A stretch of DNA of 1,842 bases from Escherichia coli (GTDB taxonomy: Bacteria; Pseudomonadota; Gammaproteobacteria; Enterobacterales; Enterobacteriaceae): the NCBI RefSeq assembly GCF_044324875.1, contig NZ_CP172193.1, one strand, 5' to 3'. Of this stretch, positions 1 to 1,842 are shown piece after piece (the stretch's first letter is position 1; each line of letters begins with the position of its first letter). A program made the translations under genes and the position numbers. The notes beneath the pieces were generated by a model that saw only the letters and a program-made list of their open reading frames with translations, searched no databases and was not told where the DNA came from.

Positions 1-113
1 ATACGAAACGTTATTTGCATGTGTATACGCAAACATGTTTGCGTGTGTTGTTTCGTACTGTACGATATAAATTTCGTAAGGTACGAAAGATTGTTGCAGG
101 TAAGGATGCAAGT
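1..113 (+). promoter_or_regulatory. Palindrome-dense leader / operator-like region upstream of ORF1 (possible autoregulatory operator or iteron-like Rep binding sites)
   Basis: Seen directly: 18-bp perfect palindrome acgcaaacatgtttgcgt at 27-44; 13-bp palindrome tcgtac-t-gtacga at 53-65; inverted repeat tttcgta-agg-tacgaaa at 72-88. The half-site TACGAAA / TTTCGTA recurs at 2-8, 51-57, 72-78 and 82-88. A TATAAA-like element lies at 66-71. Function is inferred from position immediately 5' of the ORF1 start. Confidence 0.5.
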
Positions 114-638
114 ATGCTGGAACAGCGATTTGAAGACTTTGAACAGCAAAAACGGCGAGATCACAAGGCACAAGATCAAGCCCAAAACACTAAGCAAAAA
201 CGAGATCGGTTGAATCCACCTGACTGGTCACAAGTCACTAAGGCTGGTTGGAATATGTTGGACGCTATATCCGAGAAGGTTCCTAGGGCATTTAGGCTAT
301 ATTCTTTTTTTGCTCAAAATATAGATAAATCGTGTGGAGCTGTTGTATGTGATCAAAAATTCCTAGCTGATTATTTCGGGGTTAGTTTAAGGACAATTCA
401 ATATTGGATCGGAGATTTAGAACGTATTGGTGCAATAGTAAAAATACCAGTAGGTATTTATTATGCTTATGCTTTAGATCCTTATCAGGTATGGCGTGGA
501 TATAATAAATCTAAAAAATATGCAGCATTTAACGCAAAAACATTAACTCAAAAAGATGGTGTTATTGATCGTAAGTTGCGGCTCATGCTCTCTAGAAGAG
601 AAGATTTTGAAAGCTCACTCAAGCCCTCTAAATCATGA
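114..638 (+). CDS. Winged-helix (HTH_36/RepL-like) DNA-binding protein; candidate plasmid replication initiator or replication-associated regulator (~175 aa)
   Basis: Six-frame ORF 15..638. Start reassigned to ATG 114 because AAGGA at 102-106 sits 7 nt upstream, whereas ATG 15 has no Shine-Dalgarno and its first 33 codons overlap the palindrome array and encode an atypical Cys/Arg/Val-rich peptide. Stop TGA 636-638. Motif FLADYFGVSLRTIQYWIGDLERIGAI (nt ~360-437) fits the recognition-helix pattern of HTH_36-type winged helices found in small-plasmid Rep proteins. N-terminus is a charged low-complexity stretch (EQRFEDFEQQKRRDHKAQDQAQ). AT-rich codon usage. Family assignment is from recall, not a search. 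Confidence 0.65.
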   Translation: MLEQRFEDFEQQKRRDHKAQDQAQNTKQKRDRLNPPDWSQVTKAGWNMLDAISEKVPRAFRLYSFFAQNIDKSCGAVVCDQKFLADYFGVSLRTIQYWIGDLERIGAIVKIPVGIYYAYALDPYQVWRGYNKSKKYAAFNAKTLTQKDGVIDRKLRLMLSRREDFESSLKPSKS

Positions 639-656: not shown

Positions 657-875
657 ATGAATACTGAAGATAAGCTAATGCTAAAAGTTGATCGATTACT
701 TAGTCATGATGCGTTAAATCAACGCAATATTTTAAATAATTGGGAAAGACAATTTTTAACAAGTGTTTTAGCTATCTATAGGAGGATCAATAAATATTCT
801 TTAGTTGGGCTATCACCAAAACAGAAAAATGCAACGTATAACATTTTAAAAAAATATAAATTTCATACTGATTAA
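657..875 (+). CDS. Hypothetical small basic protein (72 aa), co-transcribed with ORF1
   Basis: Strong RBS GGAGG at 647-651 with 5-nt spacer to ATG 657; stop TAA 873-875. Only 18 nt separate it from the ORF1 stop, same strand and same AT-rich composition. No Cys or His, Lys/Asn-rich, no recognisable catalytic motif. The tail FLTSVLAIY...LSPKQKNATYNILKKYK loosely resembles, from memory only, C-terminal segments of some plasmid Rep proteins. Confidence 0.55.
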   Translation: MNTEDKLMLKVDRLLSHDALNQRNILNNWERQFLTSVLAIYRRINKYSLVGLSPKQKNATYNILKKYKFHTD

Positions 876-919
876 AAGTGAAATATTTTAAAGAGCCAGC
901 GGCAGGGGGACAATCGGAT

Positions 920-955
920 TCAAATGTTAACATTTGACATCGGATTATCTATCCT
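920..955 (+). promoter_or_regulatory. Candidate sigma70 promoter (-35 TTAACA 927-932, 17-bp spacer, -10 TATCCT 950-955) overlapping an 18-bp perfect palindrome (920-937)
   Basis: Seen directly: tcaaatgttaacatttga at 920-937 is a perfect palindrome. TTAACA and TATCCT are separated by exactly 17 bp. A TTGACA hexamer at 934-939 has no well-spaced -10. The element sits exactly at the AT-rich/GC-rich junction and points into the structured GC-rich block. Promoter activity is inference. Confidence 0.3.
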
Positions 956-1063
956 GCATTGCTCTTTTGCCGCCTCAAAATCCCTTGCGTGTTTTTGCTC
1001 CCCGATCTCCAGAACGACCGAGCCGCCACGGTTCCGGCAGCGCCTTGAGCGCAACCGGAAACC

Positions 1064-1083
1064 GTCTGGGGAGAACCCCAGAC
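1064..1083. other. Perfect hairpin: 8-bp GC-rich stem (gtctgggg / ccccagac) with AGAA loop
   Basis: Seen directly: 1064-1071 is the exact reverse complement of 1076-1083. Not followed by a T-run on either strand, so not a canonical intrinsic terminator. An imperfect longer stem (acggttccgg 1028-1037 / ccggaaaccgt 1053-1063) lies just upstream. Consistent with a structured RNA or DNA element. Confidence 0.4.
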
Positions 1084-1379
1084 CCCCATCGCTGTAACAC
1101 CGACGGTCTACGACCACCTACCAACCGCGTGACTGTCTGTTTCGTGCAAATGGGCTTTGCAGGGGGCTGGCGCGGTTCCTGGCGACCTGAAAGCCCCTGG
1201 TTAGGGGTATCGGCGCGCCTGACCTCCTGAGAGCCTCTGTAAGCGTTTTTCGCGCCTTCCATGCCCTGGCGGGCATCTAAAACCCGTTTCGTGCGTCTGA
1301 GAGCTTTTGAGCGCGTTTGAGGGGCTATCTGGCGACTCATCCCCGAAAGAACAACAACGGGATCACCGACAACATGCGA

Positions 1380-1447
1380 GAGGTGATCCCGCTCGCCGCA
1401 AGTCGATGACCGAGCGTAGCGAGCGAATCGACGAGGAAGCGGAAGAG
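1380..1447 (+). other. ColE1/pMB1-family conserved origin-proximal segment (region between oriV and bom; possibly the primosome assembly site region)
   Basis: Hand alignment of 1380-1447 (gaggtgatcccgctcgccgcaagtcgatgaccgagcgtagcgagcgaatcgacgaggaagcggaagag) with the pBR322/pUC sequence gagctgataccgctcgccgcagccgaacgaccgagcgcagcgagtcagtgagcgaggaagcggaagag (recalled from memory) gives about 53/68 identities with no gaps. Orientation and distance to the bom homology match ColE1-type plasmids. The primosome-site assignment is inference. Confidence 0.6.
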
Positions 1448-1483
1448 AACCGGAAGCCACATTGAGCACTTACGCACTGATGC

Positions 1484-1508
1484 GGGGTGTCGGGGTGAAG
1501 CCCTGACC
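1484..1508. repeat. Left arm of a 25-bp inverted repeat (23/25 match to the reverse complement of 1711-1735)
   Basis: Seen directly: ggggtgtcggggtgaagccctgacc at 1484-1508 versus the reverse complement of 1711-1735, ggggtgtcggggcgcagccctgacc. Arms are about 200 bp apart and bracket the predicted nic region. Confidence 0.8.
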
Positions 1509-1513
1509 AGGTG

Positions 1514-1551
1514 GTAATCGTATCGGCGTGCGTGCGCGGTCATACGATTAC
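1514..1551. other. Hairpin with 10-bp perfect stem (gtaatcgtat / atacgattac) and 18-nt GC-rich loop, inside the oriT region
   Basis: Seen directly: 1514-1523 is the exact reverse complement of 1542-1551. Lies between the two arms of the 25-bp inverted repeat. Function unknown; possibly an accessory protein binding site or single-strand initiation structure. Confidence 0.4.
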
Positions 1552-1672
1552 ACATCCTGTCCCGATTTCTGAGGCGTTTTAACGGTGAACGGACGGCAAA
1601 AACACGATAGAGCTGTTGAACGTGAAAACCACGAAATCTGGCAAAAATCACGGCTGGCGAGGCTTGCAGAGG

Positions 1673-1735
1673 AGTAAGCCAGTATACACTCCGCTATCGC
1701 TACGTGACTGGGTCAGGGCTGCGCCCCGACACCCC
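1673..1735. other. ColE1/pMB1-type oriT (bom) nic region; predicted nic on the minus strand within CTGG/CTTA (between + strand positions 1678 and 1679)
   Basis: ccagtatacactccgctatcgctacgtgactgggtcagggctgcgccccgacaccc (1679-1734) differs at a single position from the pBR322 bom sequence recalled from memory (complement strand ...tcatggctg... versus ...tcagggctg... here). The preceding taag gives the CTGGCTTA nic octamer on the minus strand. The nic position is recalled from the ColE1 MbeA literature and is approximate. Confidence 0.75.
1711..1735. repeat. Right arm of the 25-bp inverted repeat (partner of 1484-1508); corresponds to the canonical bom inverted-repeat arm
   Basis: Seen directly (see partner feature). 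This arm is the copy that matches the pBR322 bom sequence; the left arm is the extra inverted copy. Confidence 0.8.
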
Positions 1736-1842
1736 AAATGCTCGATAAACACGTTAAACCTTGTGCAACAAAAAAGTGCTTTGATAGATCTTTAGAGCAA
1801 AAATCAACATTTCGATTAATATCAATGACTTATGACACCATC

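Follow-up and report, generated by a model that had tools for sequence, protein, structure and literature searches.

Does a small winged-helix protein encoded close to ColE1-related sequences drive the replication of the Escherichia coli DNA that carries it, or is it a DNA-binding regulator riding on a ColE1-type backbone? The question is raised by ORF1 of a 1842-nucleotide stretch of E. coli DNA (hereafter the window, meaning the whole stretch analysed). The initial annotation favoured a small-plasmid Rep gene lying behind operator or origin repeats, and kept the regulator on a ColE1-type backbone as its alternative.

The window represents an entire small plasmid circle. Over its full length it is 99% identical to the 1843-bp E. 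coli plasmid NZ_CP070127.1, and pMG828-1 (NC_008486) and other plasmids of 1.8-1.9 kb align at 90-97%. All are typed Col(MG828), the type name given by PlasmidFinder and MOB-suite, and MOB-suite types the closest record as mobilizable. This is a very common, cryptic 1.8-kb plasmid type, and the observation, though real, is an ordinary one. Among ST131 genomes, 530 of 880 were scored positive for Col(MG828) (PMC6949217). The exact rep module of the window is rarer, being found in 30 of 5426 complete E. coli genomes and on a plasmid in every case. A literature search for pMG828-1 returned typing mentions only. The circle is made up of an AT-rich module (approximately 27-45% GC; 1741-1842 together with 1-892), which holds the only two credible genes, ORF1 and ORF2, and a GC-rich module (approximately 55-65% GC; 893-1740). 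Their features are collected in Table 1.

Table 1. Coordinates of the features of the 1842-bp plasmid
Feature	Position	Strand	Details
Distal pair, tandem 24-bp units	2-25 and 26-49		16 of 24 positions identical; read from the sequence
Proximal palindromes	51-65 TTTCGTAcTGTACGA; 72-88 TTTCGTAagGTACGA(AA)		21 bp apart; flank a TATAAA hexamer (66-71)
rep (ORF1)	114-638	+	174 aa, 20.4 kDa, pI 9.6; helix 2-32, winged helix-turn-helix 43-121
ORF2	657-875	+	72 aa, pI 10, small basic protein, GGAGG Shine-Dalgarno sequence
GC-rich non-coding backbone cassette	893-1475		approximately 90% identical copies in pKL1-type plasmids and a 4237-bp plasmid
ssiA-like stretch	1389-1447	+	83% identical to ColE1 nt 1309-1367 (BLAST against NC_001371)
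Inverted second copy of GGGGTGTCGGGG...CCCTGACC arm	1484-1565	+	inverted pairs I1, I16
ColE1-type oriT (nic/bom) core	1675-1734		60/60 nt identical to ColE1 1462-1521
AT-rich leader of rep control region	1741-1842	+	GC approximately 0.33 versus 0.58 in the backbone; continuous with position 1 on the circle

ORF1 begins with an ATG at 114, 7 nt downstream of an AAGGA Shine-Dalgarno sequence (102-106), and its stop codon ends at 638; codon 175 is that stop, and the 175 aa given in the initial annotation must be corrected to 174. On near-identical plasmids PGAP calls the same coordinates and names the product "replication/maintenance protein RepL" (WP_045145680.1), from which the ORF1 protein differs at 1 residue. 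The helix-turn-helix motif pointed out earlier, FLADYFGVSLRTIQYWIGDLERIGAI, is present at residues 83-108 (nt 360-437), and in the AlphaFold model it covers a helix (81-88), the recognition helix (92-104) and the first wing strand. This model, of the monomer, was built on an alignment of 78 sequences with a pLDDT of 88.8 and supersedes a poor run with 8 sequences (pLDDT 67.6). It reveals a single winged helix, with the wing at 108-121, a long N-terminal helix and a C-terminal tail that is less certain. The charged N-terminus, previously regarded as unusual low-complexity sequence, is modelled as that single long helix (2-32) with pLDDT 94-97, and the charged segment aligns in all relatives. 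In the monomer model the helix is compatible with oligomerisation, which it probably mediates. The claim that ORF1 has no HUH motif holds, since the sole histidine of the protein is H17. Neither an HUH metal-binding motif nor a catalytic Tyr motif in a nuclease fold was encountered in ORF1, and the search for a nuclease fold in the protein returned a winged helix only.

Profile searches gave the Pfam outcome that had been predicted for a Rep protein: ORF1 matches RepL (E 2e-4, 21.3 bits) and HTH_36 (E 0.02). The RepL match covers the winged helix (residues 48-142) and is marginal at 21 bits. When 78 relatives were scanned singly against Pfam (E<=1e-3), HTH_36 was found in 54 and RepL in 42, with a best RepL E of 4.5e-10. 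Rep_3 gave no Pfam match for ORF1 and was absent from the 20 families that the scan of the 78 relatives listed, and NCBIfam held no match for ORF1 or ORF2. A phage repressor or excisionase family, the result that had been expected to speak against a Rep, was not seen; the best PHROG match, a weak one, is a replication initiation protein. Sequence searches of the PDB with shallow and deep profiles retrieved just generic HTH or wHTH segments, e.g., from terminase small subunit and GntR/AsnC proteins. An exhaustive profile search puts the family at 498 representative clusters (E<=1e-3), mostly of 150-230 aa, and Y119 is nearly invariant across it. Alignment of ORF1 with the PGAP-annotated RepL of plasmid L024 by hhalign is weak (E 0.0015 over 44 columns), and a tblastn search of phages with this RepL found nothing and provided no bridge to P1 RepL. 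The match to pKL1 RepA (protein taken from NC_002145) is full-length, with 42% identity over 156 aa and an E of 3e-41. These sequence comparisons place ORF1 in the family of pKL1 RepA, which has a distant affiliation to the Pfam entries RepL and HTH_36. Part of this is already known, in that a near-identical protein stands in RefSeq with a replication annotation and the 42%-identical homolog has been studied biochemically.

If ORF1 were instead a regulator or passenger, the plasmid would have to replicate from a ColE1-type RNA-primed origin in 900-1740, a region with two ColE1-derived stretches on a plasmid whose type name is Col(MG828). One of these stretches is the oriT core, which approximately 2000 further plasmids, mostly mobilizable, match at 95-100%. 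The other corresponds to ColE1 1309-1367, which in ColE1 has the origin region on one side (upstream of 1309) and the nic site on the other; 1389-1447 is probably ssiA, the n' primosome assembly signal. In ColE1-type origins an ssiA/n'-pas is exposed just downstream of the RNA/DNA switch (PMC3167613). BLAST against ColE1 (NC_001371) found only these two short stretches related and no similarity to the RNAII/RNAI origin region. Rfam at E<=1 returned neither RNAI nor any ColE1-related RNA, its lone hit being a chance group-II intron fragment (E 0.45), and a search for relaxase (mob/mbe) genes found none on the plasmid. With no RNAI, no similarity to the ColE1 origin and no mob genes, the plasmid does not count as a ColE1 replicon. 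It is very probably Rep-dependent and has an oriT served in trans, as any mobilisation must use a relaxase supplied from elsewhere when the plasmid has no relaxase gene. In papers citing the work on pKL1, moreover, RepA is described as an autoregulated initiator or replication protein (PMC3832669, PMC3526173), and the homologous gene is the sole gene of circles of 1.2-1.5 kb that have no region equivalent to 900-1740 (see below). Rfam, BLAST, the one-gene relatives and this literature largely refute an RNA-primed origin of ColE1 type, which we regard as barely credible. The combination of a Rep replicon with a ColE1-type oriT was at first called uncommon. It is common: pKL1 has both, and at least 80% of the same backbone is present in 495 PLSDB records.

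Other parts of the plasmid were also considered. The backbone has two long open reading frames, one of 164 aa (minus strand) and one of 98 aa (plus strand); neither was accepted as a gene, as the relatives L007 and L024 do not keep the frames intact. ORF2 occupies an accessory slot between rep and the backbone, in which pMG828-1-type plasmids have an unrelated 95-aa ORF. It has no Pfam, NCBIfam or PHROG match and only near-identical homologs, and in L027, where it is syntenic with rep, its product is 80% identical (12 synonymous and 13 non-synonymous codon differences). The segment at 1484-1565 is a possible second oriT-like element, in which the arm is followed by a perfect 10-bp inverted repeat (1514-1523/1542-1551). 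The same segment is present in other small plasmids (H41).

How little DNA does such a rep gene need? A distant DNA search with the rep module recovered approximately 130 plasmids of about 1.55 kb, 65% identical inside the gene, one of them pKL1 (NC_002145). Outside E. coli, the closest homologs are 51-61% identical and were found in assemblies of Gallibacterium anatis and in metagenomes, of which one carries the label gut. All lie on contigs of less than 2 kb on which the rep homolog is the only complete gene called, and every such contig has a terminal direct overlap of 30, 55, 99, 127 or 265 nt. Overlaps of this kind are the signature of an assembled circle and give unit lengths of 1224-1465 bp; an element of 1224/1225 bp was recovered from four independent samples. 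The Klebsiella plasmid p8WGR351, a complete RefSeq plasmid of 1240 bp, likewise encodes only a pKL1-like Rep. The region 893-1475 is absent from these 1.22-1.47-kb relatives and from p8WGR351, and the minimal relatives carry other large hairpins in its place. These circles have one gene and no cassette; in the relatives, then, the gene with a few hundred bp of non-coding DNA probably makes a self-sufficient replicon. Every E. coli plasmid examined with this rep or with pKL1 repA also carries the 893-1475 cassette, so that in E. coli the cassette may be required in cis.

The non-coding DNA upstream of ORF1 bears out the palindromic, iteron-like array described in the initial annotation. TTTCGTA/TACGAAA occurs four times in the plasmid, all within 2-88, versus 0.29 expected, and 0 of 200 shuffles reach four; the upstream 88 bp hold four palindromic elements built on this half-site. 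The second distal unit (26-49) contains a perfect palindrome, ACGCAAAC-AT-GTTTGCGT, at 27-44, the distal pair is bracketed by TACGAAAC (2-9) and GTTTCGTA (50-57), and a terminator scan reports an 11-pair hairpin at 23-48. Judged from its sequence, the distal pair is proposed to provide the Rep-binding sites of the origin. The proximal pair, recovered by the repeat search as paired 15-nt palindromic units (51-65 and 72-86; direct family D3, inverted pair I3), is proposed to be an autorepression operator over the rep promoter. Between MG828 subtypes, positions 1-88 are 97.7-98.9% identical, compared with 89-91% for the rep genes and 72-85% for the upstream flanks. In L027, an 88%-identical relative, the first distal unit and the block GATATAAATTTCGTAAGGTRCGAAA are retained though the sequence between them is rearranged. 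Retention of these parts speaks for TATAAA being the -10 element and for the last palindrome acting as an operator across the transcription start, as we infer them to be. A sigma-70 consensus scan called no promoter before ORF1, and the putative promoter is therefore assigned from conservation and analogy.

Further upstream, across the circular junction, the block GCTTTGATAGATCTTTAGAGCAAAAAT (1778-1804) is identical in the window, L002 and L007, with flanks that are 72-85% identical. The IHF-consensus match TATCAATGACTTA at 1820-1832, the single exact match to WATCAANNNNTTR, is separated from the first repeat by 11 bp. It agrees with what is described for pKL1, but such a match also arises in 28 of 200 shuffles and alone is not significant. 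The AT-rich leader is a candidate for the DNA-unwinding and IHF part of the origin. DnaA boxes in the plasmid are not above chance.

In all five lineages examined (pKL1, p8WGR351, two metagenomic types and the Gallibacterium type) the control region has the same plan. It consists of an AT-rich stretch, a tandem pair of internally palindromic units of 25-26 bp, and two half-palindromic repeats 22 bp apart. The plasmid analysed here follows it, its tandem units measuring 24 bp and its proximal palindromes being spaced by 21 bp. In three of the lineages, the Gallibacterium type and both metagenomic types, the half-palindromic repeats overlap readable -35/-10 hexamers. The half-site itself differs in each lineage, being TACGAAA here, TGTCGCATCC in pKL1, GGACAC in p8WGR351, ACACGACA in the Gallibacterium type, and GCGGAAG and CTGGAAGTC in the two metagenomic types. 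The exposed residues of the recognition helix vary in step with the half-site, while the framework residues T94, I95, W98, L102 and E103 are invariant. Such covariation is the pattern expected of a sequence-specific initiator co-evolving with its sites.

The recurring palindromes, the one-gene circles and the exclusion of a ColE1 replicon together identify ORF1 as a putative initiator and autorepressor. That ORF1 encodes the plasmid's own replication initiator is, on this comparative evidence, very probable, and the reading of a Rep gene behind operator or origin repeats is strengthened by the full-length pKL1 RepA homology and the profile matches. A caveat is that the studied relative, pKL1 RepA, is only 42% identical. 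Where Rep binds, that it represses its own gene, where the origin lies and how the plasmid replicates (theta is assumed) are what we infer in addition, and an upstream origin and a theta mode are considerably less sure than the identity of the initiator. In the mechanism we propose, Rep dimers would bind the TACGAAA/TTTCGTA half-sites of the four palindromic elements ahead of rep. Occupation of the proximal palindromes that bracket TATAAA would turn off rep transcription, and the level of Rep and the copy number would thus be autoregulated. On the distal tandem units a higher-order Rep oligomer would open the duplex and recruit the host replisome, with the IHF-type site and the AT-rich stretch around the invariant block 1778-1804 assisting in opening. 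The ssiA-like element, probably a primosome assembly signal of the PriA type, would prime the opposite strand, and the ColE1-type nic site would allow mobilisation in trans.

The origin could lie elsewhere, with 1-88 serving as an operator only and replication starting inside rep or in the 893-1475 cassette. There is a precedent in phage P1, where the AT-rich target of RepL, oriL, is part of the repL gene itself (PMC9948254). The rep gene of the window is AT-rich too (GC 0.33 at 300-600) and contains a tandem 14-nt repeat, TTAACGCAAAAACA/TTAACTCAAAAAGA, at 529-556. However, this repeat encodes the conserved residues FNAKTLTQKD, and coding constraint explains it. As to the cassette, it travels in E. 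coli with three different Rep modules (the MG828 Rep, pKL1 RepA and an unrelated RepL), with abrupt junctions, and in the 4237-bp plasmid it stands directly upstream of the RepL gene, but its absence from the minimal relatives and p8WGR351 counts against an origin there. The oriV of pKL1, too, is reported to be upstream of rep (PMC3832669). An origin in either place is quite unlikely, and an upstream origin is the reading retained here.

A different objection concerns the mode of replication. Staphylococcal plasmids of the pSN2 type encode RepL proteins of about 18 kDa with an HTH and are classed as rolling-circle plasmids with ssoA (PMC5703833), so that the assumed theta mode may be wrong. 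ORF1 would then still be the initiator, acting by rolling-circle or strand-displacement replication as in pSN2/RepL: Rep or a recruited host factor would open one strand at the upstream palindromes, and the displaced strand would be made duplex from the ssiA-like, hairpin-rich cassette as single-strand origin. The family-wide though weak affiliation with Pfam RepL fits this route, as do the nearly invariant Y119, the large hairpins that replace the cassette in minimal relatives, and the make-up of the cassette itself, structured, with its ColE1 ssiA-like piece and its abrupt junctions to three Rep modules. Each strand of 893-1350, folded as single-stranded DNA, does better than its shuffled versions (z -2.3 and -2.7). 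The cassette opens with a hypervariable hairpin at 908-950. Rolling-circle plasmids, pSN2-type RepL plasmids included, exchange lagging-strand-origin cassettes with abrupt junctions (PMC5703833). Conversely, the single histidine of ORF1 and its lack of an HUH motif and of a nuclease fold argue against this route. The pKL1 origin is described (PMC3832669) with an IHF box and multiple Rep sites, which are typical of theta origins, and the literature search for the family found neither a nick-site hairpin nor single-stranded intermediates. We consider rolling-circle or strand-displacement replication unlikely, and theta replication from the upstream origin remains the working assumption.

Related to this is the speculation, which we hold with little confidence, that the cassette with its ssiA-like stretch is an exchangeable, host-specific module for priming or a lagging-strand origin. 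Gram-positive rolling-circle plasmids use such a separate single-strand origin. If the speculation were true, the whole family of single-winged-helix initiators would use a strand-displacement or rolling-circle-like route with a separate single-strand origin. This would be a non-theta route for a family of 498 clusters without a nuclease motif, in a plasmid with no enrichment of DnaA boxes.

The main value of the analysis is a clean annotation: the Col(MG828) plasmids of hundreds of E. coli genomes are not ColE1-like replicons but, very probably, Rep-dependent replicons of the pKL1 type with no more than a nic site of ColE1 type. It seems to be the shared non-coding backbone, and not the rep gene, that the typing label follows, and plasmids with initiators just 42% identical are therefore lumped together. 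With sizes down to 1224 bp, the family also ranks with the smallest autonomous replicons known. Its initiator is a simple helix with a winged helix, for which the literature search found no description of mechanism, and it could therefore serve as a minimal model for origin opening.

How does this plasmid compare with known systems? The Rep_3 initiators (RepE of F, pi of R6K, RepA of pPS10) contain a pair of winged-helix domains and recognise direct iterons in arrays. ORF1 resembles them as a plasmid-encoded winged-helix initiator with an origin adjoining its gene and a promoter of its own repressed through an inverted repeat, all on the reading preferred here, but it has one winged helix and an N-terminal helix, no Rep_3 match, and palindromic sites. 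With ColE1/pMB1 the plasmid shares the identical 60-bp nic region and the 59-bp ssiA-like stretch, in the same order and orientation, whereas RNAII, RNAI, rop and mob genes are lacking. The likeness to Pfam RepL (PF05732; staphylococcal plasmids of the pSN2 family, phage P1 RepL) lies in a small HTH initiator of approximately 18-20 kDa, and a small basic ORF, which this plasmid has in ORF2, is also frequent on pSN2-type plasmids (PMC5703833). The P1 origin inside the gene and the rolling-circle class of pSN2 set these systems apart, neither being established for ORF1. pAES1 of Paracoccus, likened here by its description, has an HTH_36-type Rep with a reported identity of 46% to pKL1 RepA and inverted repeats in front of the rep gene, and its cloned REP module replicates autonomously in Alphaproteobacteria (PMC3832669). 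It differs in its alphaproteobacterial host, a GC content of 64% and a linked MOBV relaxase.

The comparison with pKL1 reaches furthest into detail. RepA (158 aa versus 174 aa for ORF1) is likewise the sole or main gene of a plasmid of less than 2 kb, with tandem palindromic units upstream of rep and with the GC-rich backbone and ColE1-type nic site at approximately 90% identity. The protein was reportedly studied in Burian et al. 1997, 1999 and 2003, and the last, as cited in PMC3832669, has hexamerisation of RepA in its title. The rep modules are only about 65% identical at the DNA level, the half-site is TGTCGCATCC in pKL1 versus TACGAAA here, the exposed residues of the recognition helix differ too, and the small ORF2 is extra in the present plasmid. 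Papers citing this work describe pKL1 as a 1549-bp plasmid carrying only repA (PMC3526173; PMC12839544), in whose oriV a perfect 16-bp inverted repeat is found along with several Rep sites and an IHF box (PMC3832669). The palindromes at 2-88 and the IHF match at 1820-1832, as predicted sites, would give the present plasmid a control region of this same type directly upstream of its rep gene.

Three distinct Rep modules, namely the MG828 Rep encoded by the window, pKL1 RepA and an unrelated RepL carried by the 4237-bp plasmid L024, have one GC-rich cassette of non-coding DNA in common, at ~90% identity. The first two proteins are 42% identical at the amino acid level, and no significant pairwise similarity was found for the third. 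The junctions of the cassette are abrupt, and the ORFs within it lack conservation. Each of the two strands of window 893-1350 folds better than shuffled sequences. Coordinates of this and the other features are collected in the table.

Coordinates of the features compared between the window and related small plasmids
Feature	Window	Other plasmids	Remark
GC-rich cassette	893-1475	L004 (pKL1-type) 959-1550; L024 151-767	non-coding
Hairpin with variable inner part	908-950	L023 1501-1560; L024 151-195
Second GGGGTGTCGGGG..CCCTGACC arm with following inverted repeat	1484-1565		inverted relative to ColE1 nic region
Block GCTTTGATAGATCTTTAGAGCAAAAAT	1778-1804	L004 about 285-310 (core ATAGATCTTT)
ORF2, small basic orphan ORF	657-875	L027 869-1066	strong Shine-Dalgarno
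Tandem-repeat arrays		L011-L015, about 180-450 nt downstream of rep	non-coding

At the start of the cassette lies a hairpin whose outer arms are conserved (GGACAATC / GATTRTC) around an inner part of 27-28 nt that occurs in at least four unrelated versions, the majority with a palindromic centre. These versions differ between plasmids that are 90-99% identical elsewhere; the 1843-bp E. coli plasmid NZ_CP070127.1, though 99% identical to the window, carries another one. The hairpin might act as a terminator, as a site of recombination, or as a determinant of incompatibility or antisense control. The window's version is also found in IncX4 plasmids, close to the replication gene.

The label "Col(MG828)" is given by MOB-suite/PlasmidFinder to pMG828-1-type and pKL1-type plasmids alike, and their rep genes are only ~65% identical (typing lines of L001, L002, L004, L006 and L024 were compared). 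L024, which lacks the counterpart of window 1476-1740, does not receive it. Since the label spans both rep types and is absent from L024, the typing probe seems to lie in the non-coding backbone near oriT that both types share, and not in rep; the label would therefore merge two initiator lineages.

ORF2 is syntenic with rep in L027, an 88%-identical relative, where its product retains 80% amino acid identity and the codon changes comprise 12 synonymous and 13 non-synonymous substitutions. No match to a known family was found for ORF2, and in pMG828-1-type plasmids its position is taken by a 95-aa ORF unrelated to it. One record, L010 (NZ_CP069986.1, 2544 bp, recorded as linear), holds an MG828-type rep with ORF2 together with pKL1 repA, and represents either a cointegrate formed via the shared backbone or the assembly collapse of two co-resident plasmids.

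What do minimal plasmids carry in the absence of the E. coli cassette? GC-rich hairpins (CGTCAAGG...CCTTGAC) are common to their non-coding regions (L016, L020, L025, L011), those of Klebsiella p8WGR351 and of a gut-metagenome plasmid matching at 91% over 47 nt, and L016 and L020 have an additional long inverted repeat (TCTTGGTG...CACCAAGA). These structures may act as a corresponding signal for single-strand initiation. The Gallibacterium-type circles L011-L015 (1.27-1.47 kb) contain short tandem-repeat arrays with units of ~10-11 bp (TTTGATGTCTA, AATGCTGTCTA, TTGTAGTATA); every sample differs in copy number and mixture, which accounts for their size differences.

The second arm is 92% complementary over 25 nt to the copy in the ColE1-type nic region and is followed by its own perfect 10-bp inverted repeat (1514-1523 / 1542-1551). 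The element, which pKL1 likewise possesses, may be a second oriT, belonging to another MOB type. Upstream of rep, the block GCTTTGATAGATCTTTAGAGCAAAAAT shows no variation across the MG828 subtypes compared, and its core ATAGATCTTT also occurs upstream of pKL1 repA. As a weak lead from sequence, this block may be a candidate DNA-unwinding element; its GATCTTT is similar to the start of the oriC 13-mer GATCTnTTnTTTT.
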